IMG/VR virus record: IMGVR_UViG_3300036715_001783
Location: 1 to 64,000 of that record
Strand: one strand, 5' to 3'
Origin: a virus
DNA: 64,000 nucleotides
Position numbers and translations under genes: made by a program. Positions 1 through 25,273 of this stretch are shown here, in pieces. The notes under the pieces are model-generated. The model saw nothing but the letters and a program-made list of their open reading frames with translations, did not search any database and was not told where the DNA came from. Every line of letters starts with the position of its first letter. The stretch's first letter is position 1.

Positions 1-210
<210 letters not shown>

Positions 211-6811: not shown

Positions 6812-7135
6812 ATGACAACAAAATCACTTTGGATTGATGACATTCGAACACCAGACAATCCTGATCAATATGATATTGCCCGCACTTATGATGAGGCAAT
6901 TGATTTTCTTTCAAAAAATAAGTATAATACAATTTTCCTAGATCATGATCTTGCTGATTTTAAAGATGGTAAAGAGCGGACAGGATATACAATTGTGTTG
7001 TGGTTAGCAGAACGAGCCCACAATGGCTTATATGTACCGCATGAATATAAATTTCTAACAGCTAATCCTGTTGGACGAAGAAATATGGCAGCGGTAATCG
7101 AAAAATACTTAACAAAAGAGGAATCATCAATATGA
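6812..7135 (+). CDS. Cyclic-phosphate-processing receiver-domain protein
   Basis: LWIDDIR.P, IFLDHDL, TGY, TANPVGR motifs. Confidence 0.75.
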   Translation: MTTKSLWIDDIRTPDNPDQYDIARTYDEAIDFLSKNKYNTIFLDHDLADFKDGKERTGYTIVLWLAERAHNGLYVPHEYKFLTANPVGRRNMAAVIEKYLTKEESSI

Positions 7136-8466
7136 ATAACGTAACAATCCCTGAACCAATCGTAAAATCGTTTGATTTGGTATTTGGTAACCGAGATGGT
7201 AGCATCGATAATGCTGCTGTACCTGTTCGCTGGTGTTTGACTCCAGCATTGCTGAAACAAATCAGAGATTCTGGGATGGTGAGTCCTAGAGTTGTTGTAC
7301 TAGTTACCTACTACTATGATTCCGACACTGATTATTCAATTGGGTTCAATGAAGAACGCCATGTATTTCCGTTGGAGCAATTTATTGCATATGTTCCATT
7401 GTCTCGTCCTGGTAATATACAAGTCAATGCTTACTTAATGTGTGCTGACAAAGTAATGAATAAAGCAGCCGAACACGAAATAGTGAAACGTAATTCGTAT
7501 GGTGATTATTATTGGGGCAGATTGTGGGTAAATGCTAAATTTGAATCAGGACAACGTGAAGTGAGTAATGGAGTTACTACCATGGAAATCGTTGCTTCGG
7601 CCGAAGATTACAGATTGAACATTCCAAAGGAATTATTTGGCAAGCCATTACCAAATTGGTTGGCTGGATTGGTTAATAGATACAATTCTTCCCCGGCAGT
7701 GGATCAATGTGAACAACGGAGACGGTTATTATTTTTTCCAATTAAATTGATGTTTATTGTGATTGAAGCCTTTATGCGGTGGATTGGGATTGCTGCAATA
7801 TATCTTTGGTTTAATATAATGGGATATGTTAATGTTGAAACTCGGTACCTCCGGCATCCGTTGATATATGGGTGGGATGCATACAGCAAAGGGGATTACA
7901 AATTTTGTATGGTGGCATTTGATGAGTGGGCAAAAGAAAGTGATGAAAATTCGTGGCAACAGATCTGTAAGCTAATTGTTGCTTTTTTTGTCATTCCATA
8001 TAGAATAGTTGTGGTTCCACTAGCTAGTATGGGGATTGGACTTATTGCTAATACAGCTGATAATTTGGATATAGTTTGGTGGTATGGGGCGGTGATACCT
8101 ATCGCAATTATGACTGCACTCGTTGTTGTATTGTTGGGGATGGTAGGTGTGGTTATGTTATATGAATCGGTGAAGACTGGTAGTATTGGTAGATTTAGTT
8201 ATAACTGGCTCTATCCAGTATTCAAACCAATTGATGATTTCTGTGATAAAATTGCAGATAAAGTAGATGCTTATCATGATAGAAAGTATAAAGCACAAGG
8301 TATAGCAGAAGCAGCTCATTTGGCCAAAGTTGAAAAGTATTTAACTTGTGACAATAAACCACATGATGTTGTGGCGGAACCTTCAGCTATCCCTTTCAAA
8401 GATCAAACGATGGCTTTGCGATACACCAGTATCAAAAACAAAGTATGTAAACCAATGGTGCACTAA
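7132..8466 (+). CDS. Membrane protein
   Basis: Several hydrophobic segments in the C-terminal half. Confidence 0.6.
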   Translation: MNNVTIPEPIVKSFDLVFGNRDGSIDNAAVPVRWCLTPALLKQIRDSGMVSPRVVVLVTYYYDSDTDYSIGFNEERHVFPLEQFIAYVPLSRPGNIQVNAYLMCADKVMNKAAEHEIVKRNSYGDYYWGRLWVNAKFESGQREVSNGVTTMEIVASAEDYRLNIPKELFGKPLPNWLAGLVNRYNSSPAVDQCEQRRRLLFFPIKLMFIVIEAFMRWIGIAAIYLWFNIMGYVNVETRYLRHPLIYGWDAYSKGDYKFCMVAFDEWAKESDENSWQQICKLIVAFFVIPYRIVVVPLASMGIGLIANTADNLDIVWWYGAVIPIAIMTALVVVLLGMVGVVMLYESVKTGSIGRFSYNWLYPVFKPIDDFCDKIADKVDAYHDRKYKAQGIAEAAHLAKVEKYLTCDNKPHDVVAEPSAIPFKDQTMALRYTSIKNKVCKPMVH

Positions 8467-8819: not shown

Positions 8820-9605
8820 TTAGAATACCTTACTTAATATATTAGCAATATTTTTCTTTTCTGTATAAGGAATACGTAATATTTTAATACTATTTTCAAT
8901 GCAATATCTATTTTTGATATCATCTCTATATTGAGTTTTGTCTAATAAATGTTGCATTTGTTCTTCTGTCATCTTTTGATGAAATTTAACAGGTTTAAAG
9001 TGTTGTTCTCCGTCATATTCTATTATCATATTGTGTGATGGAATAAACACATCAAATTTTAATGGATATTTAGTTTTAGGATTAATACAATCATTGAACT
9101 TGTGTTCAGTTAAATGTTCAATAGAATTAGTACTTAACCAGTTGGTGATAAGAGACTGACCTCTCGAATTCTTACACTTTGGACAACCAGAACCAGCTAA
9201 ATGGTTGCCCACCCTTTGTGTAAACTTTCCATGTATGCGACAACCAATAGTAATTTTTTTGAGATATGATTGGTATATGCAATCAGAATAATCATATTTA
9301 TCCCCATGTACTTCTTTAAAACGTAACAAGGCCTCTTCTTGTGACCAAGTACCGAGTTTATTTCGTTGTCTAGTAAATTCTCTACCACATGCCCCACACC
9401 CACATGGTCTATTTGAGTTGTCGGGATTATTCCAATTTTTTGTATGATTATTTGCTTCCACAGTAAACTTACCATGTATTGGACAAATAACTATAACAGT
9501 ATTCCACATAGTAGTGTATTTAGTTAATGAATAATCATACTTATGATTGTGAGCTATATTAGCTCTACTAATAAACTCTTCTTGTGATAACCGTTTTCTG
9601 CTCAT
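8820..9605 (-). CDS. Homing endonuclease (HGDKYDY repeats plus DUF559/PD-(D/E)xK-like domain)
   Basis: HKYDYS, HGDKYDYS, GCPKC, FDVF...IEYDGEQH; late promoter upstream. Confidence 0.8.
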   Translation of the reverse strand: MSRKRLSQEEFISRANIAHNHKYDYSLTKYTTMWNTVIVICPIHGKFTVEANNHTKNWNNPDNSNRPCGCGACGREFTRQRNKLGTWSQEEALLRFKEVHGDKYDYSDCIYQSYLKKITIGCRIHGKFTQRVGNHLAGSGCPKCKNSRGQSLITNWLSTNSIEHLTEHKFNDCINPKTKYPLKFDVFIPSHNMIIEYDGEQHFKPVKFHQKMTEEQMQHLLDKTQYRDDIKNRYCIENSIKILRIPYTEKKNIANILSKVF

Positions 9606-9710
9606 ATTTAATGCCTGTTATAAATAGTTGGAGGGTGTGTATATTTATGTATTGACTTTTTAGGGTAAAAATATTATAATATATTTTTTAAATTAAGAAA
9701 GGAGAATACT

Positions 9711-10826
9711 ATGGAAGTATACGTTTGTGGGGGAGCCGTTCGTGACGTGTTGATTGGAATTAAACCTAAAGACATTGATTATGTGGTAGTTGGTGCAACA
9801 CCTGAAGATATGGTAGCTCATAATTTCACTCAAGTTGGAATTGATTTTCCAGTATTTCTGCATCCGAAAACGGGTGATGAATACGCATTAGCGCGGGTTG
9901 AAAGAAAGACAGGAGTTGGATACACAGAATTTGACTGTAATACAAATGGCATTACATTAGAAGAAGATTTGAGTCGTAGAGACTTAACAATGAATGGTAT
10001 GGCAGTTCATATTGATGATTGGGAAACATTTGTTGAAACTGGATCCACTTGTTTATTAATTGATCCATTTCATGGATATGATGACATTATATCCAGAACA
10101 ATTCGACACATTGGACCTGCTTTCAGTGAAGACCCAATTCGGGTATTGCGGGCAGCAAGATTCAGTGGAAGATACGGTTTTGATATTTGTGCTCATACAA
10201 AAGTGTTAATGGCTGATGTGGTACAAGAATTAAACACTATATCCACTGATCGTATCTGGACTGAGTTTCAGAAAGGATTGGGTGAACAATATGCTTACAG
10301 AATGATTGAAGTATTAGAACAGGTTGGAGCATTTGATGTTGATATTATGTGTCCATTTAAGCAAGAACAAGAAGTAGATTTGTTTAATGGAAACGATCGG
10401 GTATTATCAATGAAATACTCACCAGTGAATATTCCTGTCAGATTTGCAATCATGGGTCAGCATTTTGACGAAACAACATTCAAGTCTCACCGCATCCCGA
10501 ATGACTGTGTCAAGTTGACTATGGCTGTTCAAAAGCATGGGACAACCTTAGTAAAATTTGATGAGCAACCAAAAGAGGTGCGGTTGAATATTATTGAACA
10601 GCTGAGAGCTGTTAATAGTTCTGAGTTTGTGGATACGGTATTCACTACATTAATGGTAATGAGTGGTAACTCGTTAGAAGGTCCAAGGCACCAATTTGCC
10701 CGTGATGTGAATGTGATTAGACATATTGGTTCTGATGGAACTATTGAACAAATTATAGCTGATACGCCAAAAGGTTCTGATATTAAACAAAAAATCAAAG
10801 AAGCTCGGTTAGCGGTTATGGATTAA
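9711..10826 (+). CDS. cca: tRNA nucleotidyltransferase (CCA-adding enzyme)
   Basis: GGAVRD..G..PKDIDYVV, EYALAR.E, EDL.RRDLT.N, EDP.RVLRAARF. Confidence 0.95.
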   Translation: MEVYVCGGAVRDVLIGIKPKDIDYVVVGATPEDMVAHNFTQVGIDFPVFLHPKTGDEYALARVERKTGVGYTEFDCNTNGITLEEDLSRRDLTMNGMAVHIDDWETFVETGSTCLLIDPFHGYDDIISRTIRHIGPAFSEDPIRVLRAARFSGRYGFDICAHTKVLMADVVQELNTISTDRIWTEFQKGLGEQYAYRMIEVLEQVGAFDVDIMCPFKQEQEVDLFNGNDRVLSMKYSPVNIPVRFAIMGQHFDETTFKSHRIPNDCVKLTMAVQKHGTTLVKFDEQPKEVRLNIIEQLRAVNSSEFVDTVFTTLMVMSGNSLEGPRHQFARDVNVIRHIGSDGTIEQIIADTPKGSDIKQKIKEARLAVMD

Positions 10827-10857
10827 TAAATACTGTAGTGCTTACAGAGGAAGTAAA

Positions 10858-11100
10858 ATGACTACAGTAAATTATTTATACAATATTGGTGTTGAAGTGT
10901 TTCATGTTGATCCAATAAAAGGAGTTCGTGATGCAGTTGTACGAGCTCTAACTATATCCGTTACACAAGCTGGACAAACCATTTCATATGAAATTGTATT
11001 TAAGAAGCCAGAAAATGGTAGTGCAATTGTACCAGAGCCCACATTATATGCTGATGTGGATTCTGCTCTAATTGCATACCGACCTTCTATTTTAGTATAG
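10858..11100 (+). CDS. Late hypothetical protein; C-terminus replaced by endonuclease insertion
   Basis: ATAAATA upstream; ends YRPSILV*, with a twin YRPTVVVP* at 11814-11840. Confidence 0.6.
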   Translation: MTTVNYLYNIGVEVFHVDPIKGVRDAVVRALTISVTQAGQTISYEIVFKKPENGSAIVPEPTLYADVDSALIAYRPSILV

Positions 11101-11788
11101 CTTTACAATACTCGTTGTGCCACCGTGTAATAACACTGGCACAACAAGTTAATCCACAGCGTGTGCATGTTTTTTGTTTCCTCACCTTGGGCTTTTTTAG
11201 TTTTGTTTTTTGTTCATCTGTCCAAACTCTTCCTTTCTTAGCTTTTGATATTTTCTGTCTTGTTTCTTCTGATACTATCTTCCCTAAATGGGCATCTCTA
11301 AATATTTTTTTATATTCTTCAGTTTGTCGTTTTTGTCTTGTTTCTTCTGTCTGTGAGGAACCCAATCTAGCTTTTCTTATTTTCTGTCTTGTTTCTTCTG
11401 TTTGTATCCGCCTTTTCCCTGCTTCACTTAACTTCAATCTGGTTTCATCTGATATATTTTGTTTTGTTACTGATAGTAAGCGTTTGGTTTCGTCTGAGTG
11501 ACGGTGGTTTAATCCTCCAGGTACTAAATTATACCCATTGGGAGTAAGTGTTTTATGTTCGTTAATGAAATGTTCTTCTAGCTTATTAGCTTCCTCTATT
11601 GTTAAATTTTCTGCCAGATATTCTTGAACAAACATATCCCATCCATATTTTTGTATGGCATTATTAAATGCTCTACATTTACTAGAAGGAGAAGCATGTT
11701 CCCTCATCCTTTTATTAAAATTAGATGTTTGTCCTATATAGGATTTGCCAGATGGACTTGTTATTTTGTAAATAGTATAATTGTGCAT
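11087..11788 (-). CDS. GIY-YIG homing endonuclease with NUMOD3 repeats
   Basis: IYKITSPSGKSYIGQT, NGYN, repeated SEETRQKIS. Confidence 0.9.
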   Translation of the reverse strand: MHNYTIYKITSPSGKSYIGQTSNFNKRMREHASPSSKCRAFNNAIQKYGWDMFVQEYLAENLTIEEANKLEEHFINEHKTLTPNGYNLVPGGLNHRHSDETKRLLSVTKQNISDETRLKLSEAGKRRIQTEETRQKIRKARLGSSQTEETRQKRQTEEYKKIFRDAHLGKIVSEETRQKISKAKKGRVWTDEQKTKLKKPKVRKQKTCTRCGLTCCASVITRWHNEYCKAILK

Positions 11789-11849
11789 TGTTTACTCCAG
11801 TATCACATATTTATACCGTCCAACAGTTGTTGTTCCGTAAAAATAACTG

Positions 11850-11877
11850 TTGACTTTTATCAAAAAATGTGTATAAT
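11850..11877 (+). promoter_or_regulatory. Sigma70-like promoter heading the tRNA cluster
   Basis: TTGACT-N16-TATAAT. Confidence 0.7.
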
Positions 11878-11959
11878 GCTCAAAATGAATTACGAAATAC
11901 ATTTTTCTCAGTTTTATGGGACGATGTACTAAATAGAATACCACAAAGAGAAAATTGAA

Positions 11960-12037
11960 ATGTTTATAATTACAACAACCATAGTAGCGAGAGCGAAAAC
12001 AACCAAGGTGAATAATAATTCATCAGGTCGGGTCTAG
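11960..12037 (+). CDS. Putative attenuator leader peptide MFIITTTIVARAKTTKVNNNSSGRV
   Basis: 25-codon ORF between promoter and terminator; its 3' end can pair with the terminator 5' arm. Confidence 0.7.
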   Translation: MFIITTTIVARAKTTKVNNNSSGRV

Positions 12038-12068
12038 TTGTAATTAAAATTTTTAATTGAACTTTACA

Positions 12069-12102
12069 GCCCCGGTCTTCTGAAAAGAAACCGGGGTTTT
12101 TT
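12069..12102 (+). terminator. Intrinsic terminator of the attenuator
   Basis: GCCCCGGT-CTTCT-GAAA-AGAA-ACCGGGGT followed by a T tract, just upstream of the first tRNA. Confidence 0.85.
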
Positions 12103-12133
12103 GTTATTTGGGTATAAGTTAAAAATAGTTTTT

Positions 12134-12206
12134 GGGGATGTATCTCAATTGGTAGAGCGGAACACTTGCAATGTTTAGGTAGCAGGATCATAGCCTGTCA
12201 TCTCCA
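12134..12206 (+). tRNA. tRNA-Ala(TGC), variant T-loop ATCATAG
   Basis: GGGGATG/CATCTCC acceptor with G3-U70; GAACA-CTTGCAA-TGTTT anticodon arm. Confidence 0.8.
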
Positions 12207-12981
12207 CAAAAAATACGGGTAGATCACGATAACCAGATTCCCATTTCGCTATACGTTGATATAATTCTTCTAATGTGATCATTGAGTGTTTACGTGATTT
12301 GTTGATGGTCCAAGGAACCAATTCAGCGTTAGCTGGATGAGACATGATATTGGGGTCGATATTATTACTAAATCCATCTTGGATTCTGTATAAATGATCC
12401 CAAGATAGTCCTGTAGGGTTGTATAGTCCTTTGTTTGAGGGAGTATACCACCCAAATTTGGATATTAGTGTGGAATTAAATAGCTGTGGGTGTTCTTTTT
12501 TGTTTATATTAAATTTACAAAGTGCTCGATATCTTATTTTACCATTTTTGGTTATATTGCAGGTTGGATGACAAAAGATGTGATTTTTGGAATTGGATAC
12601 AAATATTGAGTCACACGTGGGACACGTCTTGGAAATCTTGGGTTTAGGAATATATGTTCCATATGATTTGTTTTTTGTAGTTGGATTGTCAAAATGTATA
12701 GTTCCGAGTTTCTTGCGCCAGGTATTTTGGGTTTTAAAAATAAAGTTTGGATCTCTTGTATTATTAGTATATGTTGCAGAACAAGAAGAGTTGCAAAATT
12801 GTTGAGTTTTCTTCTCGTACGGTAAAGGAGAATCACACTGTTTACAGTAATTTAGATTTTTATTATATAATAATATTCTATCAGCTTTACTTTGAATAGT
12901 TTCTGGGTGTTTGGTAGTTTTGTGGCGATGCATCGCTTTATACGATTGATGTGATGAACCACAAGTTGGGCAGTTAAACAT
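12175..12981 (-). CDS. Zn-finger/HNH-like homing endonuclease; 3' end overlaps tRNA-Ala
   Basis: C2H2 and FC..SC motifs; SWDH....GF.NNI.P.IMSHPAN; CATAAATA promoter upstream. Confidence 0.75.
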   Translation of the reverse strand: MFNCPTCGSSHQSYKAMHRHKTTKHPETIQSKADRILLYNKNLNYCKQCDSPLPYEKKTQQFCNSSCSATYTNNTRDPNFIFKTQNTWRKKLGTIHFDNPTTKNKSYGTYIPKPKISKTCPTCDSIFVSNSKNHIFCHPTCNITKNGKIRYRALCKFNINKKEHPQLFNSTLISKFGWYTPSNKGLYNPTGLSWDHLYRIQDGFSNNIDPNIMSHPANAELVPWTINKSRKHSMITLEELYQRIAKWESGYRDLPVFFVEMTGYDPAT

Positions 12982-13058
12982 AGTACAATGTCCTTATTTT
13001 AATGGGTATCTGTATTTATGAGTTCGAAAAGGGGAAGTTCCACATAAGTAGTATAAAT

Positions 13059-13131
13059 GGTTGTATAGCTCAATTGGTAGAGCACTAGTCTTTTAAACTA
13101 GGTGTTCGGGGTTCAAGTCCCCGTGCAGCCA
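13059..13131 (+). tRNA. tRNA-Lys(TTT)
   Basis: Canonical cloverleaf, CTAGT-CTTTTAA-ACTAG. Confidence 0.92.
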
Positions 13132-13172
13132 CATACAGATGTTGATTTTTAAATTGATATCGTATATAATAA

Positions 13173-13246
13173 GCTCTTATATTTTAGTGATAGAATAAAA
13201 CTTTGGTATAGTTTAGGCACCAGTTTGATTCTGGTTAAGAGCTCCA
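13173..13246 (+). tRNA. tRNA-Thr(GGT), AU-rich and atypical, encoded CCA
   Basis: GCTCTTA/TAAGAGC-T-CCA; AAACT-TTGGTAT-AGTTT; T-loop TTTGATT. Confidence 0.6.
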
Positions 13247-13248
13247 CT

Positions 13249-13320
13249 GGTCGTAACGCCAAATGGCATGGCAACGGTTTTACATACCGTCACAAGTAGG
13301 TTCGATTCCTACTACGACTA
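13249..13320 (+). tRNA. tRNA-Val(TAC)
   Basis: GGTCGTA/TACGACT; ACGGT-TTTACAT-ACCGT; GTAGG-TTCGATT-CCTAC. Confidence 0.85.
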
Positions 13321-13388
13321 CAAAATTTATCCACAGTTGATTTTAAATGATAATTGTGTATAATGTATTAAATGAGTTAAACAAATAT

Positions 13389-13471
13389 AACTGCTGCACT
13401 GACAACCTAGGGTTACTTCACGCTTCTTAGAAGGCGTCACCCCCCCTTAATTGTTAATAATTAGCTCAGTT
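13389..13471 (+). ncRNA. Short Y-RNA-like gene 1 (no tRNA domain)
   Basis: AACTG-CTGCA...GGGTTACTTC-hairpin...CCC...TAGCT-CAGTT, same scaffold as the other four copies. Confidence 0.6.
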
Positions 13472-13474
13472 TAT

Positions 13475-13546
13475 TCCATCCAATGCACAAGGTGTGCAGA
13501 CTGACTGTTAATCAGTTCGAGCCGGGTTCGATTCCTGGGGATGGAG
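13475..13546 (+). tRNA. tRNA-Asn(GTT), atypical (A8-A9, D-loop CAAGGTG)
   Basis: TCCATCC/GGATGGA-G; ACTGA-CTGTTAA-TCAGT. Confidence 0.8.
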
Positions 13547-13640
13547 CAAAATGGTTATTCGGCGCTTACGTTGATGTCGTAGAGTGTACAGACACAGATA
13601 AGTGTAGGTTAAACGCCTGGCGCGTCGCTAACCATTTTAT

Positions 13641-13712
13641 TCCGAGGTAGTTCAGCGGTAGAACATCGCACTGTTAATGCGCTTGTCGGGGGGTCGATCC
13701 CCTCCCTTGGAG
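13641..13712 (+). tRNA. tRNA-Asn(GTT)
   Basis: TCCGAGG/CCTTGGA-G; CGCA-CTGTTAA-TGCG. Confidence 0.88.
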
Positions 13713-13734
13713 CTTAATAAAAAGGAGTTATATA

Positions 13735-14259
13735 ATGGTTGTTATTAATATTTTTGGTGCTCCTGGTAGTGGTAAATCAACGGCTGCAGCTGGTTTATTT
13801 CATTTAATGAAATTATCTGGATTTTCAGTGGAGCTTGTTACAGAATATGCAAAAGATATGGTTTGGGAAGAAAGAGGTAATATTTTCACGGACCAATTGT
13901 ATATGTTAGCTAAACAAAATCGTAAGTTGTTGCGATTGGATGGTAAGGTTGAATATGTTATTACTGATTCGCCTATCATAATGAGTGAAGCATATGTTAA
14001 TGATACACCTTACAGGGATACATTAACACAGTTGATTAAAGAAGTGTTTTTGAGTTATAATAACATCAATATCTTCATTAATAGAAGTCATGAATATCAA
14101 GAAATTGGTAGAAATCAGACAAGTGAAGAAGCAATGGAATTAGCAACACAAATTAAAACATTGTTAGTTAAACATGATGTTGAGTTTACAGAGTTTGATT
14201 CAGATAAAGTTACGCCAGAAGGATTATTATCCCACTTGTTGACATTATTTGAGAAATGA
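13735..14259 (+). CDS. NadR/Ttd14-like (AAA_28) P-loop kinase
   Basis: INIFGAPGSGKST, VTEYAK, ITDSP, GRNQ. Confidence 0.8.
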   Translation: MVVINIFGAPGSGKSTAAAGLFHLMKLSGFSVELVTEYAKDMVWEERGNIFTDQLYMLAKQNRKLLRLDGKVEYVITDSPIIMSEAYVNDTPYRDTLTQLIKEVFLSYNNINIFINRSHEYQEIGRNQTSEEAMELATQIKTLLVKHDVEFTEFDSDKVTPEGLLSHLLTLFEK

Positions 14260-14295
14260 GTATAATACTCCGCATAAGTTAGTAAAAGATTAAAA

Positions 14296-14368
14296 GCCAC
14301 ATTAGCTCAATTGGTAGAGCAGTTGATTTGTAATCAACAGGTTGGGGGTTCGAAGCCTCTATGTGGCT
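14296..14368 (+). tRNA. tRNA-Thr(TGT)
   Basis: Canonical, GTTGA-TTTGTAA-TCAAC. Confidence 0.92.
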
Positions 14369-14372
14369 CAAA

Positions 14373-14518
14373 TGCAGTTGCAACAAGAAGAGTTACTTCA
14401 CTGTTAATGAAGTGGTCCGGGTTCGATTCCTGGGTTCTCCGCAAAATGTTTTACTTTTGGAGAATTGATGTAAATTGGGAGCACACTAAAAATCTCTCTT
14501 CTTAATTTTATCTCTGCA
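14373..14518 (+). ncRNA. Y-RNA-like gene 2 (YrlA-type permuted tRNA domain with Asn GTT loop)
   Basis: TGCAG/CTGCA terminal stem; GTTACTTCA-CTGTTAA-TGAAG; T arm, closed acceptor GTTCTCC/GGAGAAT, then D arm. Confidence 0.75.
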
Positions 14519-14545
14519 ATTTTTTAATAATAACAGGAGACAAAA

Positions 14546-14767
14546 ATGTCTAGTATGTTACAAGAAACCCCAGAAAATATTCTTGAATATGTTGGGTTAA
14601 TTGGTAAGAAAGTTAGAAAGGCAAAAAAACCCTTTTTATCGGGATTACAAATTAACACAGTTAAGGGTATTGTTATTGAGCAACACATTAACCGATATGG
14701 TTTTATTTTTGAAGAGGACGAATCGGTGGTTGAGTGTTGGCGTTGTGTTGGAGTTGATGATGAATGA
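14546..14767 (+). CDS. Hypothetical phage protein
   Basis: RBS AGGAG; KPF.SG...NTVKG motif. Confidence 0.6.
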   Translation: MSSMLQETPENILEYVGLIGKKVRKAKKPFLSGLQINTVKGIVIEQHINRYGFIFEEDESVVECWRCVGVDDE

Positions 14768-14918
14768 GCCAGGATTGAAGTGGGTTAATCATTCAGAATT
14801 GATGAAACTATCTCGTGATAGAGACGACAAGAAAATTGATTATGAGCTAGTAGCTTGGCCTACAGCTAATTCGCCTTACTTACTAAAGTTTTGTATTAAG
14901 GTGAAGTAAAAAGAATAT

Positions 14919-15052
14919 GTGGTTGCAATTTTGAGAGATACTTCGCCTATTAAGCGGGTGGCCGGAGGTTCGAGTCCTTCCAATATCAGTAATGATGTTG
15001 TAGCTCAGTTGGTTAGAGCACCTAAAACCTCTCTCGATAACTTTATCTCCAC
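14919..15052 (+). ncRNA. Y-RNA-like gene 3 (permuted tRNA domain, ATT loop)
   Basis: GTGG-TTGCA...GATACTTCGC-CTATTAA-GCGGG; GGAGG-TTCGAGT-CCTTC; AATATCA-GTAA-TGATGTT; GCTC-AGTTGGTTA-GAGC; ...TATCT-CCAC. Confidence 0.8.
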
Positions 15053-15071
15053 TAATATATTATAACGAAAC

Positions 15072-15207
15072 AAGCCGTTGCAAAGTATAGACATACTTCA
15101 AACAATCTGAAGGTCGCAGGTTCGAATCCTGCTCACTTATACGTAGGTGGTAACTCAGTCGGTAGAGTGTCTGACAATAAAAGAGTCTGTGCAATTATAT
15201 CTCGGTT
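15072..15207 (+). ncRNA. Y-RNA-like gene 4 (permuted tRNA domain)
   Basis: AAGCCG-TTGCA...CATACTTC; GCAGG-TTCGAAT-CCTGC; TCACTTA-TACG-TAGGTGG; ACTC-AGTCGGTA-GAGT; ...TATCT-CGGTT. Confidence 0.8.
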
Positions 15208-15211
15208 TATT

Positions 15212-15284
15212 TGGTAGAGAGCCTGTGGTGGCTAGGCGCTGGGATTTAATCCTTGAAGAATGTGGTTCGAATCCACATCTACCA
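15212..15284 (+). tRNA. tRNA with Gln-like acceptor and apparent TTA (ochre) anticodon
   Basis: TGGTAGA/TCTACCA; TGTGG-TTCGAAT-CCACA; weak anticodon stem CTGGG-ATTTAAT-CCTTG. Confidence 0.55.
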
Positions 15285-15319
15285 ACATTTTTACAACTAC
15301 ACAGTGGAGAGTATCGATA

Positions 15320-15633
15320 TGAATGATAACCAAATAATTGAACCCATTTCTCCTAATGACATTGATGCAGAAGCAGGAAAACAAATCCCATCTGTTGTTA
15401 TTGCAATTGTGAATACTCTATTGGCTGAAAAGTGGAAGGGGAAAAGTGCTACTATCAGACAAGATGACATCATTGAACAAATTGTTGCAAAGATGTCTGT
15501 TTCCAGAGAGTTTGTATTCCAATCCAATTGGTTGGATTTTGAAGGGTTATTTAGAAGTAAAGGTTGGAAAGTGAGTTATGAAAAGCCTTGCAGAGGTGAA
15601 AGTTTTGCAGCATTTTTCAGATTCGAAAAATAG
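15320..15633 (+). CDS. Hypothetical phage protein (start near MNDNQ)
   Basis: GGAG RBS; IP..VI..VN.L, WLD.E..F...GWKV.Y.KP. Confidence 0.6.
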
Positions 15634-15639
15634 AACAAA

Positions 15640-15755
15640 AAGCCTTGGTTGGGAATAAAATTCCTGCAGTGGTAGCACGGTGGTTCGATTCCACCTATGT
15701 CTGGACAGACTGCATAAATCCTTGGGAATATGGGGTTCAACTCCCCACAAGGCTT
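15640..15755 (+). ncRNA. tRNA-like structured RNA with two T-arm-like hairpins
   Basis: AAGCCTTG/CAAGGCTT ends; GGTGG-TTCGATT-CCACC and TGGGG-TTCAACT-CCCCA. Confidence 0.6.
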
Positions 15756-15757
15756 CT

Positions 15758-15906
15758 AAGAATGTAACACATGAAATGCCCATGTCCTGGCTGACGAGCT
15801 TACTTTTGAAATAGGTGGTACTATTTGAAGTGTAGCGCAGGGTGGTGAAGCTGGAGTACCGACTAGCTAATAAACAATGTTGGAAGCTTGCGCCCAACAC
15901 ATTCTT
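15758..15906 (+). ncRNA. Structured ncRNA candidate
   Basis: AAGAATGT/ACATTCTT ends enclosing several hairpins; GC-richer than flanks. Confidence 0.5.
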
Positions 15907-16156
15907 TTCAAATATTAGGAGATACGCCGTGACCGATTTAAGCACATTAGAATTAACAGTTGGAGTTACACATCCACGTCATCCAAAATGTAAGGGTGAA
16001 GGTTATACTGATCATGATGGGAACACTGAGTATGATTGTGGATATAATACCACTATTGAATGTGATGAATGTAAGTATTGTTTACATGATGATGGTCGCC
16101 CAGTGGGCAGAAAAGATCCAGCTGCAAAATGTAATCAAATGAAATAGGAGTTCAAA

Positions 16157-16447
16157 ATGTTTGGAGATGCTATATTTCAAGATGGTTATGGTGATGGATC
16201 TGGTGATGGATCTGGTGATGGATCTGGTGATGGTTGGAGTAGAGAAGATGATTATTGTTCATTTCAGTTATCCAATAACACATTTGTTAGAGACCCATTA
16301 TATTATCACAGTTGGTTTAAGTTTAAAGAAATAAGAGAAGAGACTGAAAAAGCTTACCTTATTAAAATTAAAGGATATAAACCATTTTGGGTAGCAAAGT
16401 CGTTGATTAAAAGAAAGAATGATAGTAAAATATTAGTTCATACGTAG
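16157..16447 (+). CDS. GDGS-repeat phage protein
   Basis: GYGDGSGDGSGDGSGDG; ETEKAYL motif. Confidence 0.6.
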   Translation: MFGDAIFQDGYGDGSGDGSGDGSGDGWSREDDYCSFQLSNNTFVRDPLYYHSWFKFKEIREETEKAYLIKIKGYKPFWVAKSLIKRKNDSKILVHT

Positions 16448-16512
16448 ATATTTACAAAATGCTTAAAAGAACATAAAAAGGTCAAGAAGTTAAAAATAGT
16501 GAATCGACCATT

Positions 16513-16591
16513 TCTACGGTAATGTCAACCTGGTAACAATGGGTGGGGTGAAATCTTATTCATATTGTGGGTTCAAATCCCACCCGTAGAG
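16513..16591 (+). tRNA. Atypical tRNA, extended anticodon stem, GAA (Phe) loop
   Basis: TCTACGG/CCGTAGA-G; GTGGG-TTCAAAT-CCCAC; TGGGTGGG-GTGAAAT-CTTATTCA. Confidence 0.55.
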
Positions 16592-16606
16592 CACAAAAAG
16601 TATTAT

Positions 16607-16681
16607 ACTCCACTAGCTCAATTGGTTAGAGCGTCCAACTCATAATTGGAGGGTTCTGGGTTCAAGTCCCAGGTCGGAGTA
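16607..16681 (+). tRNA. tRNA-CAT (Ile2 or elongator Met)
   Basis: TCCAA-CTCATAA-TTGGA; 1-nt bulge in the acceptor stem. Confidence 0.8.
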
Positions 16682-16762
16682 CAAAGTAGGGAGTCAAGAT
16701 GATAACTTGAAACAGCTGCATTAATCAGCATCAGCTTCCCTATTAATTTTAATTATTAGGAG

Positions 16763-17086
16763 ATGAATATGAGTGAACGACACCCATACACAGTTATTAT
16801 TGAAGGAGATGAGGGCGATGGTGATTATATCACTCACGAATTTGCTGCAACTGATGTTGATATGGCCTTATTGGTTAAATTTGTGGAATTAGCTAGACCA
16901 TTAAGAGGTAAGTTTCTTATTGGTGATTGTAGAATTAATGGGTCTAATCCAGAAGATATATATCCATCTTTGACGACCATTGAATTAGAACGACTTGCTG
17001 ATATGTTCCCTTGTGGCGAACATGGAATACACCAAGTTCGATCTATTAAATTTGCACCCATTGTTAACTGGGTGGAAATGTTATAA
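16763..17086 (+). CDS. Hypothetical protein
   Basis: ORF with RBS. Confidence 0.5.
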   Translation: MNMSERHPYTVIIEGDEGDGDYITHEFAATDVDMALLVKFVELARPLRGKFLIGDCRINGSNPEDIYPSLTTIELERLADMFPCGEHGIHQVRSIKFAPIVNWVEML

Positions 17087-17094
17087 CCAAATAT

Positions 17095-17172
17095 AAACTG
17101 TTGCACTGCACCGAAGGGTTACTTCACATATAATGAAACCAAACACCCTTTACCGCAATTATATCTCAGTTT
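17095..17172 (+). ncRNA. Short Y-RNA-like gene 5 (no tRNA domain)
   Basis: AAACTG-TTGCA...AAGGGTTACTTCA-CATATAA-TGAA...CCCTT...TATCT-CAGTTT. Confidence 0.65.
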
Positions 17173-17175
17173 TAT

Positions 17176-17247
17176 TCCAGCTAAATCACAAGGTGTGATA
17201 CTCGACTGTTAATCGATTTAAGCCAGGTTCGATTCCTGGAGTTGGAG
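17176..17247 (+). tRNA. tRNA-Asn(GTT), atypical (paralogue of 13475)
   Basis: TCCAGCT/AGTTGGA-G; D-loop CAAGGTG; TCGA-CTGTTAA-TCGA. Confidence 0.8.
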
Positions 17248-17272
17248 CATACATTAATTTTAGGAGACACAA

Positions 17273-17614
17273 ATGAGTAAAGTGGATCATTATAAAGGTA
17301 CAATTGTAAAAATACCTGATTTAGTTGGTAAATCGTTTACAGAATCGATTGATTGGTTGTTAGCTAATGGTCATGAGATTGAAGACTTCGAACTTGAAGA
17401 TGAATACATGAGTGATCCTAATGTGGTTGTTGTGAATGGTGAGTTTTATTTTATAACAAGAACAGAGCTGGATGACGATGATGATATTTTGTATGCAAAG
17501 TCAATTCCAGGTGGATATGAATTTGATGTGAAGTATTATAACGGTGGTGTAAGTTTTGACGAAGCACTAGAGGATGCAGTAATAGCTGCAACCAACCGGG
17601 AGATGTCTGAATGA
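17273..17614 (+). CDS. Hypothetical phage protein
   Basis: HYKG...YYNGG.SF.EALE motif; RBS. Confidence 0.6.
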   Translation: MSKVDHYKGTIVKIPDLVGKSFTESIDWLLANGHEIEDFELEDEYMSDPNVVVVNGEFYFITRTELDDDDDILYAKSIPGGYEFDVKYYNGGVSFDEALEDAVIAATNREMSE

Positions 17615-18340
17615 ATCATTTAATAGCGCAAGCAATTGTAGTTGCAGTTGTAATATTTTTACTGTACAAAGGAGCAAAAAACGCTCCATTGCAAATTACA
17701 CCTAAACCACAAAAAACCGAATCAAAATTGTTACCAGTATTTTTTGCGTCTGGTGGTGGACAGACAACTCCTATTCATTTTACAAGTTTGGAAGAATTAA
17801 GAACTCATCCAATGTTTGATATTTGGAACAGTGAGTATGTGCTTAAACAACCCGAAGACAGTGTTAGTGTTTTCATGGTAAAAGAGGGCGATGAAGTATC
17901 TGAAGGTACAGTGGTCGGTTGGTTAGTTGAAATATCAACTAAACGATATTTTTCATAATATAACGATCATTGGTGCAGCACATCTGTTAAACCAAGCTGG
18001 TTTGAGTCCAGAGGCCAATGTTAGTTAATTTTTCAATTTTTAGGAGATATTATATGTGGTTTTTAGTTTGGATTTTAGTAACAACAGTTGGTGGGTTTTA
18101 CTTTGGGCTTGATGTTGCTCCACCAGGGTCTGGTATGGAATGGGTTGGGGCAATTGTAGGCTTTGTGGTTGGGTTGTTGTTGTGGGTAATGTTTAAAGCT
18201 GCTTCTGGCGAATCACTTGGAGATGCATTTGGTAGCATCGGTGAATCATTTGGTGGTGATGGTTTTGGTGATGGTGGCGGTGATTAGTTCAACACATTAC
18301 TTTTATAATTAGGAGATGCAAATGCATAAGTAAAAAATCG

Positions 18341-18775
18341 ATGATACTTCTAGCCTTGGTTAGTGTTGTGACAGTATTAAGTGGGTGTAAACCAGACCAA
18401 CGATTTGACCATAGTACTTCAACCGCTGGTGCTCGAACATATGTGCAGTTTATCACAACAGTATTGGGGTGTTCCATTTACAAAGTGGTTGTTGAAGGTC
18501 CTACGTCAGATTTGTTTATCACTGTGTGCGACGACTCAACAAAAGCCTCTGCAGTTTCTTATATGAGTGGCAAGACTCCAGTGCATGTGGTATCAGGAAA
18601 TACCCCATCTCCAACATCCACCGTGGTTCCCACCACGGTGGATACTTCATTGGATTTTAGCACAGAAGAAAAGAAAGTATTAGACCAAGCAGACCAAATC
18701 CGTCACAAGTTTGAAATATTAGATAGGTTGTCCACAGAAGACAAGGCAACTTTAGGATTTGCAGTAAAAAAATAG
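18341..18775 (+). CDS. Lipoprotein
   Basis: VLSGC lipobox. Confidence 0.6.
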   Translation: MILLALVSVVTVLSGCKPDQRFDHSTSTAGARTYVQFITTVLGCSIYKVVVEGPTSDLFITVCDDSTKASAVSYMSGKTPVHVVSGNTPSPTSTVVPTTVDTSLDFSTEEKKVLDQADQIRHKFEILDRLSTEDKATLGFAVKK

Positions 18776-18782
18776 CAACAAC

Positions 18783-18856
18783 GTCCATGTAGCTCAACAG
18801 GATAGAGCAAGACTCTTCTAAAGTCTAGGTTGGTGGATCGTGCCCACTCGTGGATG
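18783..18856 (+). tRNA. tRNA-Arg(TCT), variant T-loop ATCGTGC
   Basis: GTCCATG/CGTGGAT; AGACT-CTTCTAA-AGTCT. Confidence 0.85.
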
Positions 18857-19714
18857 CTAAGGTATGTGTAAAAGTTGTTTGATCTCAGGTAGTTTTTGTT
18901 GTGATTGATATTCCCGATGAGTAACTCGAACAACTTTCCAACCTCTACCAGTCAAATAATCATCTCTAATATCGTCCAATTGTTTTCGTTTTTTGTGGTG
19001 TGAACCATCTAATTCTATTATTAATTTTAATTTTGGAAATACAAAATCTGCCCATCCATTCTTTTTTGTATCTGGATTAAAAAATCTAACTTCCATAAGA
19101 TAACCAGATAAACTATTAGTATAATTGTGGCTAATTAACCACTGCTCAAAAGAGTGTTCCATATAAGATTGTTGATGTGGTCCTCTGATGTGTTTTCTAT
19201 TTGAAACCAACCAAATAGACATCAATCTGGAGTTTCGTATTTTCATACACTCCATAGAACACAAAATGCGGTGTTTGTTTTCAGCTATAAAGCCGCCCCC
19301 ACATTCAGCACATATTAGAGAATGTTCGATTTTGGATTTAATTGGCCTAATTTTTTGCTTTAGTGTGGCAGATCTTTTTGTTTTTGATTCACTGGTGTGT
19401 ATTCGGGTTGTATTATTTGTAATGGTGGCACATGACCTGGAGCAGAAATTGTTGCCAGATACACTAATGTTACACTGCCTTACTGTTATGTATTTTCCAC
19501 AGTTGTGACATTGTATAGTTATTGGGGGCAATTTAATTGTAATTGGTAAGTTAGCCGCTGTTAATGCATCGTTCCAAGATCCAAATCTTTGTCTAATTAC
19601 AATGGGGGATATGCCTAACTGAGAGGCAGTTAAATTACAAGTTGGAACTTTGTTCGTTGTGTTGTAATAATCAACTAAACATTGTATAATAGCTTCATTG
19701 GTAAATTTTACCAT
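18857..19714 (-). CDS. Homing endonuclease (HN-associated repeat, Zn fingers, DUF559-like nuclease)
   Basis: RFGSWNDAL, FCSRSC, ADFVF....IIELDG..H, RD.YL..GWKVVR. Confidence 0.8.
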   Translation of the reverse strand: MVKFTNEAIIQCLVDYYNTTNKVPTCNLTASQLGISPIVIRQRFGSWNDALTAANLPITIKLPPITIQCHNCGKYITVRQCNISVSGNNFCSRSCATITNNTTRIHTSESKTKRSATLKQKIRPIKSKIEHSLICAECGGGFIAENKHRILCSMECMKIRNSRLMSIWLVSNRKHIRGPHQQSYMEHSFEQWLISHNYTNSLSGYLMEVRFFNPDTKKNGWADFVFPKLKLIIELDGSHHKKRKQLDDIRDDYLTGRGWKVVRVTHREYQSQQKLPEIKQLLHIP

Positions 19715-19756
19715 ACATAATCCTTCGAGTGACTGTGTATATTTATAACTATCAGC

Positions 19757-19786
19757 AGGTCTTGGTTCGATTCCACTCGTGGATGC
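19757..19786 (+). pseudogene. Stranded original 3' end of tRNA-Arg
   Basis: AGGTCTTGGTTCGATTCCACTCGTGGATGC; last 14 nt identical to 18844-18857. Confidence 0.85.
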
Positions 19787-19824
19787 ATAGTTTTATTCCC
19801 CAGTTATTTCAATAGGTCATTTTT

Positions 19825-20568
19825 ATGAATCGTCCAGCATTATATGTTCAAGCAGCTCCTTACAATAACAATTTAGCATTTGACTTTTGTTACTCAGCAA
19901 AGTTAGGAGCACAGGAAGCTGGAATTGAAGTATCTCATTTTGCCAACATTGTTGATGTTCCTCCTTCTCCATATAATATCATTGTGGGTTCTGTTGAAGT
20001 ATGTACACAATGGTTGGCTCAATCTAGTTTTACTGTTCCCCCTGTAATAGATCTATTATTATTTAAAGATTTCCTTGGAAGACAAGTTGAAGTCTTGCCT
20101 ATTTCCCAAGTCAACATTCCCGCCTTTATTAAACCTGCTTATCAACACAAAGCATTCACGGGCTTCATTGCTGATAGCAACTTAGCATTAGCAGTATGGA
20201 GTGAGGGATTTCAAGGTGACGTAATTTCACAACAAATCATCGATATTAAAAGCGAATATCGCATGTATATCAATTGCCAAAAGATTATTGGAATGAAACA
20301 CTATAGTGGGGATTGTCTTTTGTTTCCCAATAGCCAGTTCATTACGTCTTGTGTTGAAAAATCATATGAATTGTTGGATAATCATTCGTATACTCTTGAT
20401 TTTGGAGTATTAGAAGATGGGACAACTGTCCTTATTGAACCAAATGATGGGTGGGCTGTAGGAAATTATGGTTTGGACCCACTTGACTATTATTATTTTG
20501 TTCGTAATAGATGGTTACAATTAACAGGTGTACGAACACGAATGGAGCATAATTTACATGGCAGATAA
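19825..20568 (+). CDS. ATP-grasp (R2K/DUF4343-like) protein
   Basis: FIKP...KAFTG, SEYR, YTLDFG, LIE.NDG.A.G.YGL. Confidence 0.8.
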   Translation: MNRPALYVQAAPYNNNLAFDFCYSAKLGAQEAGIEVSHFANIVDVPPSPYNIIVGSVEVCTQWLAQSSFTVPPVIDLLLFKDFLGRQVEVLPISQVNIPAFIKPAYQHKAFTGFIADSNLALAVWSEGFQGDVISQQIIDIKSEYRMYINCQKIIGMKHYSGDCLLFPNSQFITSCVEKSYELLDNHSYTLDFGVLEDGTTVLIEPNDGWAVGNYGLDPLDYYYFVRNRWLQLTGVRTRMEHNLHGR

Positions 20569-20604
20569 CATTTATCCCAGAAAACCAGAATAAGGAAACA
20601 TACA

Positions 20605-20991
20605 ATGGAACTTAACGTATTACACGACCAAGAGATTTTAGTAATTGATCGACCTACTATTACAGGGCGAATATTTCCTCTACAAGTGTGTCAAGATATC
20701 GTGGACAAGTTTGAGGGGTGCTTTGGTCAACTTGGCATGTCGGATGACGGTAGGGTCAAAGTTGAATCTATTTCACACAAAGTAATTAACTTACGGATTG
20801 TCGACAATCAAATAATTGGTGATGTAAAAATTCTGAACACACCATTGGGACAAATTCTTCAAGAATTACATCCTGATCAGTATAATTTTAGAATAGCTGG
20901 TTTTTGTCATTATAAAAATGGCACATCAGAAGTTGCAGATTATCAGTTAATATCTATTAATGCGGTGAGTGTGTATGAAGTTTTGTGTTAA
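20605..20991 (+). CDS. T4 gp21 prohead-protease-like paralogue, likely inactive
   Basis: GRI.P, G.LG, SH.V..L, KILNTP.G.IL; catalytic His/Ser positions appear substituted. Confidence 0.6.
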   Translation: MELNVLHDQEILVIDRPTITGRIFPLQVCQDIVDKFEGCFGQLGMSDDGRVKVESISHKVINLRIVDNQIIGDVKILNTPLGQILQELHPDQYNFRIAGFCHYKNGTSEVADYQLISINAVSVYEVLC

Positions 20992-21152
20992 CGAAGTGGA
21001 ATATGACCTAGGTTGGGGGTCAAGAGTATTAGACACCAAAGAATTTGATACTCTACAAGAAGCAAATGATTATATCGCAGAATTTAACTCACAAAACACC
21101 TGTGATCGTGTACCTGATTGGTATATGGTGGCAGTATTAGCCGGAGACTTAT

Positions 21153-23737: not shown

Positions 23738-25273
23738 ATGCACATGTCTAAACTTAACAAAGCACCAAAGAAAGTAACCAAAACTGTTGCAGTAGTTGCT
23801 GCAAAACACAATCTAACAGTTGCACATTCAGCAAACGGCAATCTACAGTTCAAAAAAGAACCACTGCAACATTTGTATGAGTTAACTGTATCCACGTTGT
23901 TTGGTAGATCAACATTTTACCGTTCAAGTGATGCATTAGTACAAAGCTTACGAACAGAAGTACGGACTGCTGTTGAAATGGGTGCTCTTGATTTTGTCGC
24001 AAATCTTGCTATCCATGCAAGAGGTGAGATGAATATCAGAACAATTCCGATTGTTTTGGTTGTTGAATTTGCTAAAGCATTGCGTGAACAAGGTAAAACG
24101 TATCCACACTTAAGACACTTGGTTAGAGACGTTATTCAACGTGCTGATCAGATTACTGATATGTATGCTTATTCTCTTGACGTATTTGGAGAAAAAGGTA
24201 AAATCCCTATGGCCATCAAACGAGGTGTTGGTGATGCCTTCAATAATTTCGGTGAATATGCTTTTGCAAAATACAACAGAGCTGGTGCAATCACCATTAA
24301 AGACGTGTTGCGAATTGTTCACCCTGTGGCAAACGAAGCTAAACAAGGTGCTATTTTTCAAAAAATCATTGATGAGAACCTGGAAACTCCATACACTTGG
24401 GAAACAGAACTGTCAAGAAACGGCCAATTACCAGAAGCTGAGCGTAAAAGCAAAGCAAAATTATGGACTGAGTTGTTGACTTCGGAAAAATTGGGATACA
24501 TGGCACTGTTAAGAAACATGCGAAATATTCACGATGCAGGCGTGGCACACAATGTGGTTAAGACACATGTTGCTGATATTATTGCTGATGAACAACGAGT
24601 TGCTGCTTCAAGACAGCTTACGTTTGATTTTTTGCAGGCCTATGATGTGATCAAACCTCTGAATTCCAGTATGGCTACTGCAGTATCAAAAGCTGTGGAT
24701 ATCAGTGTTAAGTACTTACCAAAAGTTGGTGAAAAAATTTGGGTAATTATTGATTACTCAGGCTCTATGAGTGGTAAAGCAATTGAAACAGCAACGTTGT
24801 TGGCAGCAGCATTATTGAAAGCCAATGATGGATCAGAACGGTTAGCTGTAACTATGTTTGGTTCAGCAGCAAAGACCATTCATACTGTGGACACAAATAA
24901 CTCTGTGTTAGCTATCCAAAGAGAGTTGTTAACCCACCGTAGAGGGAACATTGCAGGCTCTACAGAGTTTCAAGCGGCAATGAGAGAATACCCAGGTTTA
25001 GGCTTTGTGCCTGATACCATCGTTGTGTTTACAGATGGCGAAATTAACAGATTTCACTACCCTGATTTGCAAAAAAATTCAGGCGATTCTAACACAGTTA
25101 AACTGGTAGTTAATTTAGATGGAGCACCAACTACTCCATTCATTAAACAAGCTGGATGGTATGCAATGGCTGGCTGGACTCCTGCCATGTTTAAGTGGGT
25201 GCCTGCAATTAGAAACAAAGAAACTGTAGTGGATGCTTTATCTGGTCCATACACAGAACGAAAATCTAAGTAA
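23738..25273 (+). CDS. rsr: Ro60/Rsr (TROVE plus vWA) RNA-binding protein
   Basis: LA..AR..MN.R, QRAD, F..Y...KY, KDVLR.VHP, TWETELS, LGYMALLRN.RN, D.SGSM, FTDGE. Confidence 0.93.
   Translation: MHMSKLNKAPKKVTKTVAVVAAKHNLTVAHSANGNLQFKKEPLQHLYELTVSTLFGRSTFYRSSDALVQSLRTEVRTAVEMGALDFVANLAIHARGEMNIRTIPIVLVVEFAKALREQGKTYPHLRHLVRDVIQRADQITDMYAYSLDVFGEKGKIPMAIKRGVGDAFNNFGEYAFAKYNRAGAITIKDVLRIVHPVANEAKQGAIFQKIIDENLETPYTWETELSRNGQLPEAERKSKAKLWTELLTSEKLGYMALLRNMRNIHDAGVAHNVVKTHVADIIADEQRVAASRQLTFDFLQAYDVIKPLNSSMATAVSKAVDISVKYLPKVGEKIWVIIDYSGSMSGKAIETATLLAAALLKANDGSERLAVTMFGSAAKTIHTVDTNNSVLAIQRELLTHRRGNIAGSTEFQAAMREYPGLGFVPDTIVVFTDGEINRFHYPDLQKNSGDSNTVKLVVNLDGAPTTPFIKQAGWYAMAGWTPAMFKWVPAIRNKETVVDALSGPYTERKSK

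Follow-up and report, generated by a model that had tools for sequence, protein, structure and literature searches.

A codon-matched candidate attenuator in front of the tRNA genes of an uncultured phage

Phage tRNA genes have been explained as codon compensation and, more recently, as replacements for host tRNAs cut by defence systems, but how a phage decides when to make them is not described in any paper that we could find. An uncultured phage places a tiny reading frame, written almost entirely in the codons that its own tRNAs read, together with a potentially switchable transcription stop, in front of its tRNA genes. Does this arrangement couple the production of the tRNAs to the speed at which ribosomes decode the codons that they serve? 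On present evidence, which is computational only, we consider that it probably lets slow ribosomes turn tRNA production on, a control for which we found no precedent in the literature.

The window analyzed here is a stretch of 64 kb, the first part of an 80.7-kb IMG/VR virus record of about 36% G+C and an estimated completeness of 30%. Sequencing runs that hold it come from microbial-mat, sediment, and freshwater metagenomes, and no RNA run was listed among them, so that there is no evidence on expression either way. The region is a translation and RNA-repair neighbourhood that holds a CCA-adding enzyme, eleven tRNA genes between 12134 and 18857, two sub-threshold YrlA-like RNAs, a NadR-like kinase, a Ro60-like protein, and an RNA ligase. 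Three reverse-strand ORFs in it are homing-endonuclease-like.

The leader and its codons

A preliminary description of this locus had reported a promoter, a 25-codon ORF, and a strong terminator just before the first tRNA, with two competing pairings, and this observation was confirmed, all of the sequence elements being found in place (Table 1). The segment GGTCGGGTCT (12026-35) can pair with AGCCCCGGTC (12068-77), in the 5' arm of the terminator, at -7.7 kcal/mol, and the extended duplex reaches -10.9 to -14.9 kcal/mol. The second pairing, 11968-76 with 12037-45, is the core of a 22-bp helix that encloses the whole ORF, with the AUG in one arm and the stop codon at the foot of the other. The leader folds much better than shuffled sequences (z = -4.4). 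The promoter is one of the three best in the 12-kb stretch scanned (9000-21000), and the terminator, which is not bidirectional since there is no U-run on the minus strand, ends 31 nt before tRNA-Ala.

Table 1. Coordinates of the leader elements and of neighbouring features (window numbering).
Position	Strand	Feature	Observations
11850..11877	+	Sigma-70-type promoter TTGACT-16-TATAAT	11 of 12 matches; inferred transcription start about 11884-11886; no differences listed in variants X4 or X6 where their contigs cover it
11898..11928	+	5' hairpin of the leader RNA, 11 pairs	Present in the MFE fold; could be a stabiliser or a pause element; variants keep every pair: 11907C>A with 11920G>T is compensatory, 11919G>A and 11923G>A turn G.U into A-U, 11899A>G turns A-U into G.U
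11946..11951	+	Weak Shine-Dalgarno-like AAGAGA	8 nt before the ATG; anti-SD duplex of -2.9 kcal/mol against a median of -5.6 for 65 long + strand ORFs taken as the phage's genes
11953..11976	+	5' arm of the 'protector' helix (segment 1)	Contains the spacer, the AUG, and codons 2-6; 11957G>A in X6 turns G.U into A-U
11960..12037	+	Leader ORF, 25 codons plus TAG (12035-37)	Peptide MFIITTTIVARAKTTKVNNNSSGRV; 75 nt after the inferred start; in variants only an in-frame 3-nt deletion (one ACA) and ACC>ACT, synonymous and read by the same tRNA
11966..12019	+	Regulatory codons 3-20 (inferred)	17 of these 18 codons (all but ATT) are read by the phage tRNAs Thr-TGT, Thr-GGT, Val-TAC, Ala-TGC, Arg-TCT, Lys-TTT, Asn-GTT, and CAT (taken as the ATA reader)
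12025..12043	+	5' strand of the predicted antiterminator	Last four codons, stop codon, and GUUGUAA; duplex of -14.9 kcal/mol with 12064-12080, matched by 3.7% of random genome segments and 1.6% of shuffles; in silico, forms in nascent RNA only when a ribosome sits on codons 1 to about 18
12037..12058	+	3' arm of the protector helix (segment 2)	Starts at the last base of the stop codon
12064..12078	+	3' strand of the predicted antiterminator, also 5' arm of the terminator (segment 3)
12068..12102	+	Intrinsic terminator	13-pair stem (12068-12098) with one bulge and a GAAA loop, then T6 (12097-12102); -19.4 kcal/mol; strongest on the + strand of the whole 80.7-kb record
12134..12207	+	tRNA-Ala(TGC)	First gene behind the terminator
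13059-13321	+	tRNA-Lys, Thr-GGT, and Val	No credible promoter of their own
13142		Promoter-like site	Ends 3 nt before tRNA-Thr; probably not a promoter
13337		Internal promoter	10/12
14239		Internal promoter	12/12
9711-10826		CCA-adding enzyme
10858-11100		80-codon ORF after the CCA enzyme	A real gene; in variant X5, 9 of 10 listed differences fall on third codon positions
11087-11788	-	GIY-YIG/NUMOD3 homing-endonuclease gene	Segment 11076-11819 absent from variant X5, in which a contig joins 11075 to 11820 with 7 other letters between
12175-12981	-	268-residue ORF (phrog_23051, function unknown)	Weak C2H2 zinc-finger hit; overlaps the 3' 33 nt of tRNA-Ala and separates it from tRNA-Lys
14931-15040 and 15086-15194		YrlA (Y RNA-like) family, sub-threshold matches	34-35 bits, E about 2e-4; among the tRNAs, upstream of the Ro60-like and RNA ligase genes
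15212-15286		tRNA with anticodon TTA, ochre-suppressor type	ARAGORN; Rfam 35.5 bits
16607-16682		CAT-anticodon tRNA	A1-U72, C4-G69, and C5-G68; no run of three G-C pairs in the anticodon stem
23738-25273		Ro60-like gene
26399-27598		RNA ligase
1-200		Tandem 9-nt repeat (GCTACTGGT)n, then (GACAAAGGC)n	Collagen-like Gly-X-Y coding
56074-59052		Cas2/3-like helicase	About 28-30% identical to those of Vibrio phage ICP1 and an Acinetobacter phage; points to a phage-borne type I-F CRISPR-Cas locus

ARAGORN found the same 11 tRNAs in the whole record, namely Ala-TGC, Lys-TTT, Thr-GGT, Val-TAC, Asn-GTT (three copies), Thr-TGT, a TTA-anticodon tRNA, CAT, and Arg-TCT. With strict wobble rules, these tRNAs read 30% of the codons in the phage's genes, but 17 of the first 20 codons of the leader (17 of 25 overall), and all eight sense anticodon species of the phage are represented. 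The preliminary description had matched all of the first 20 codons but ATT, that is 19, an atypical GAA tRNA being among the anticodons. This tRNA appears only at a relaxed ARAGORN threshold, overlaps tRNA-Thr, and lies in a Y-RNA-like element, and is thus not credible, so that TTT is not matched. The count is 17 if the CAT tRNA reads ATA, or 16 if it reads ATG. The CAT tRNA is not an initiator, and its acceptor pairs resemble the lysidine (ATA-reading) type, although this assignment remains tentative. The TTA-anticodon tRNA would read TAA, which is the commonest stop of the phage's long + strand ORFs (52 of 86), and the leader itself ends TAG-TTG-TAA.

The leader ranked first of 682 short ORFs in six frames, where the next best scored 12. 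Among 59,221 open 20-codon windows, only one other locus reached 17, the collagen-like tandem repeat at the start of the window. None of 20,000 mononucleotide and 20,000 dinucleotide shuffles of the 60 nt reached 17 (maximum 15), and the other two frames of the leader scored 4 and 5. The refuting condition set beforehand, a codon match no better than in random AT-rich ORFs, was therefore clearly not fulfilled, and the codons are enriched and cognate to what the phage tRNA genes supply. However, the match is at the amino-acid level and synonymous choice adds little. Six of the 17 matched codons belong to tRNAs that lie behind the promoter at 14239, and with the five proximal tRNA species alone the match is 11/20, reached at 28 loci, showing that the signal concerns the whole repertoire and not just the proximal block.

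The possibility that there is no regulation, an ordinary terminator closing the upstream CCA-enzyme operon with a promoter lying before it by chance and an ORF of coincidental codon content, is very unlikely in our view. In the variant without the homing endonuclease (X5, from a groundwater metagenome), the 80-codon gene ends about 35 nt before the promoter, and thus the terminator could serve that operon; the endonuclease gene is a recent mobile insertion between this operon and the leader promoter. Some selection bias also exists, since the feature was chosen after 64 kb had been read. Against this reading stand the joint improbability of the codon match, of the switch contrast described below, and of the position, directly before the first tRNA, and the conservation of the promoter and helices in variants.

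Alternative pairings and natural variants

To analyze the effect of ribosome position, the nascent RNA was folded from 11885 to 12088, that is, before the 3' arm of the terminator emerges, and the probability that the CCCCGG core of the terminator is held by 12020-45 was taken as the measure of the antiterminator. This probability was 0.014 with no ribosome and 0.6-0.87 with the A site of the ribosome on codons 1-17, fell around codons 18-20, and was 0 from codon 20-21 to the stop codon, for three footprint sizes. In silico, this is the classical three-state logic. When 11945-12063 was replaced with 557 random segments of the same genome, none gave as large a contrast, whereas the bare complementarity alone is only modestly unusual (p about 0.02-0.04). 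The codons where a stall is productive (up to about 18-19) are those matched to the phage tRNAs (up to 20), and the five unmatched codons (TCA TCA GGT CGG GTC) are the antiterminator strand itself, the two boundaries having been derived independently. The only triple codon run (AAT, codons 18-20) sits, however, at the edge of the productive window, and most codon classes occur only 1-3 times, which predicts low sensitivity per tRNA. At equilibrium the full-length RNA always favours the terminator (P = 0.95), and the decision must therefore be kinetic, as in the classical attenuators.

Contigs from two freshwater metagenomes (variants X4 and X6) overlap the leader at 95-97% identity. Seven of the eight substituted positions lie in predicted stems and all keep pairing, including one compensatory double change, three G.U to A-U improvements, and two changes to wobble pairs, while the eighth is in a loop. 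Single-base deletions occur only upstream of the ORF (11902 and 11929), and 11981-12080 is identical in X6. These results point to selection on the RNA structure, although they rest on two partial and near-identical variants. They are compatible with a kept frame, but the in-frame deletion lies in an ACAACAAC repeat, where slippage gives 3-nt steps anyway, and is thus weak evidence for coding. An in-frame ATG at the inferred transcription start (11885, 15 codons) was rejected as coding, because the variants carry 1-nt deletions inside it.

The weak ribosome-binding site, already mentioned as a caveat in the preliminary description, stands: the Shine-Dalgarno sequence is weaker than about 77% of those of the 65 long + strand ORFs and unremarkable among random short ORFs. 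Moreover, it lies with the AUG in the 22-bp helix of the finished RNA, and in nascent RNA the initiation region is only about half open (0.55 against 0.30 unpaired). These features would fit the main rival reading, a self-contained small RNA gene, non-coding or encoding a 25-residue peptide, from which a stable structured RNA of about 215 nt would end at its own very strong terminator and act in trans, the tRNAs behind it being made from leak-through or weak promoters. The quality of the fold and the compensatory and wobble changes in the variants also agree with it, and terminated attenuator RNAs are known to act as sRNAs (rnTrpL, PMC6614838), so that the two readings do not exclude each other. 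However, it does not explain the frame-specific codon match, nor why the complement to the terminator arm lies exactly over the stop codon, and tRNA-Ala and tRNA-Lys have no promoter scoring 9/12 or better of their own, the best candidate, at 12099-12128, matching 8/12 by eye. We regard it as doubtful.

A translation-independent switch, in which the leader would bind a protein or an RNA (for example a tRNA, Ro60, or the CCA enzyme encoded upstream) that decides between terminator and antiterminator, as in T-box or protein-mediated attenuation, appears very unlikely. Alternative pairings, the conserved 5' hairpin, and the many RNA-binding proteins encoded in the neighbourhood are in its favour, but it leaves the codon match unexplained, no specifier-like or T-loop-binding motif was seen, and no Rfam family, T-box and the amino-acid leader families (Thr_leader, His_leader, Leu_leader, Trp_leader, and others) included, matched the leader at the gathering score; at E <= 5 only chance-level L10 and L20 leader hits were obtained.

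Searches in other phages

Beyond these variants, no relatives, closer or more distant, and none with a different small tRNA set, were found in the collections searched. A blastn search of 11700-12250 against isolate phages gave no match, nor did exact-pattern scans for the terminator, tRNA-Ala, ORF core, and promoter in IMG/VR, or exact-pattern scans in metagenome contigs, and no look-alike stretch was found in the other windows of the same survey. The CCA-enzyme protein, which falls in a 3-member cluster, had no close relative in IMG/VR and JGI metagenomes, and its best homologue in 5.8 billion proteins is 49% identical. Of 80 distant CCA-enzyme loci, five have tRNA clusters, and none of these has a codon-matched short ORF, indicating that the method does not produce matches routinely.

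A homologue of the NadR-like kinase led us to a complete 453-kb phage with an analogous unit (locus L127, 16750-16975, minus strand; also locus L118, about 7030-7260). About 330 nt before a cluster of roughly 34 tRNAs, two of which appear to carry introns, it has TTGACA-17-TATAAA, a good SD (AAGGA), and a 25-codon ORF containing 19 different amino acids, found in 7 of 82,512 windows (P = 8.5e-5 per window). A hairpin predicted to act as antiterminator joins the last codons of the ORF to the 5' arm of the terminator, and a CCCCGG/CCGGGG-U6 terminator follows. In this phage the antiterminator is, in silico, the default and only a ribosome on the last codons melts it, and the codon-level match is not enriched (14/25 against a mean of 17.8). 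Since alignment of the two leaders shows only promoter-consensus similarity, we treat this unit as an analogue and not a homologue, which supports the general design and suggests that it may be recurrent, but is not proof. A possible further analogue lies in a 183-kb phage with 46 tRNAs (locus L002, 8762-9012), where a consensus promoter precedes a 20-codon ORF (MTSKANDELQHRYYRQGSDK), whose stop overlaps the start of a second 15-codon ORF (TAATG), followed by a strong terminator, an HNH endonuclease gene, and the tRNA cluster; with its 46 tRNAs this locus is uninformative for codon co-variation.

A ribosome-mediated attenuator as the most likely reading

Taken together, the most likely reading, which we hold with moderate confidence, is a leader-peptide transcription attenuator at the head of the tRNA cluster. 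In this view, a ribosome would translate the 25-codon frame while RNA polymerase, having started at the leader promoter, moves towards the terminator. If the codons read by the phage's own tRNA species (Thr, Ile-ATA, Val, Ala, Arg-AGA, Lys, and Asn) are decoded quickly, the ribosome would reach the last codons or the stop and cover the 5' strand of the antiterminator, the terminator hairpin would form, and transcription would end before tRNA-Ala. If decoding of any of these codons is slow, the stalled ribosome would hold the protector helix open, the antiterminator would form, and polymerase would read on into tRNA-Ala, Lys, Thr, Val, and beyond. Without any ribosome the protector helix would form and termination would be the default. 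The net effect would be feedback, phage tRNAs being made when ribosomes are short of exactly those tRNAs. Our analysis establishes the elements, the codon statistics, the alternative pairings with their in silico dependence on ribosome position, and the keeping of the helices in the natural variants, whereas translation of the frame, the operation of the switch in vivo and its response to decoding speed, and how far the read-through transcript extends are inferred.

The interpretation given in the preliminary description is thus only partly supported. The attenuator architecture and the codon-tRNA match were supported by every computation that we could run, but the GAA tRNA was not, and to describe the architecture as established thr/ilv-type overstates the case, since there is no Rfam leader match and no sequence homology, so that this is an analogue and not a member. 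The proposed trigger, destruction of tRNAs by host anticodon nucleases, is speculation, and the proposed output on Y RNAs and repair genes is likewise inference. The preliminary description had cautioned that internal promoters near 13142 and 13338 could bypass the leader; those at 14239 and 13337 can drive the distal tRNAs and Y-like RNAs independently, and the 268-residue ORF, probably another mobile endonuclease-like insertion inside the tRNA operon, would be transcribed against the read-through transcript. Simple feedback on tRNA supply explains the same anatomy and is the more economical version. It remains possible, although unlikely on present evidence, that the leader is a multi-codon alarm: when a host defence nuclease cuts any of the tRNAs for Lys, Asn, Thr, Arg, Ile, Val, or Ala, ribosomes would stall on the matching codon and switch on nuclease-resistant replacement tRNAs and, through a long read-through transcript, the Y-like RNAs and RNA-repair genes, which would make it a phage-encoded sensor of tRNA-targeting immunity.

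If the attenuator reading is correct, a leader frame written in the phage's own tRNA repertoire would be a self-tuning supply loop, extending classical attenuation from amino-acid supply to tRNA supply, and from one or two amino acids to eight codon classes. It would also give a sequence signature (promoter, codon-matched short ORF, terminator, tRNA) for finding regulated tRNA islands in metagenomic phages.

Phage tRNAs are known as a counter-defence, as for T5 tRNA-Lys, which neutralises PARIS (PMC11464382), and for anticodon-loop variants (PMC10264068). Here too the genes that would be regulated are phage tRNAs (Lys, Asn, Thr, Arg, and others), in a neighbourhood with CCA enzyme, Ro60-like, and RNA-ligase genes, but those papers, to our reading, describe the tRNAs and not any sensor or attenuator controlling them. 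As with the attenuator-derived sRNA rnTrpL and the peptide peTrpL of Sinorhizobium (PMC6614838, PMC7298713), a terminated leader transcript with a strong structure could persist and act in trans, a comparison that is a possibility only, as no target or trans function is indicated here. T-box riboswitches share the logic that the supply of a particular tRNA decides between terminator and antiterminator upstream of genes that restore that supply, but a T-box binds uncharged tRNA directly and needs no ribosome or ORF. Compared with the thr operon leader (thrL; Rfam Thr_leader) and the ilvGMEDA / ilvBN leaders of enterobacteria, the present leader sits in a phage and would regulate tRNA genes and not amino-acid biosynthesis enzymes, has eight codon classes, mostly of 1-3 copies each, instead of long runs, has a weak SD and an extra conserved 5' hairpin, and shows no sequence or covariance-model similarity to them. 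It shares with them a promoter-proximal short ORF, several kinds of putative regulatory codon in one frame, predicted protector, antiterminator, and terminator helices, a stop codon inside the antiterminator strand, and termination as the predicted default without translation, and the peptide even looks alike, being rich in Thr, Ile, and Val.
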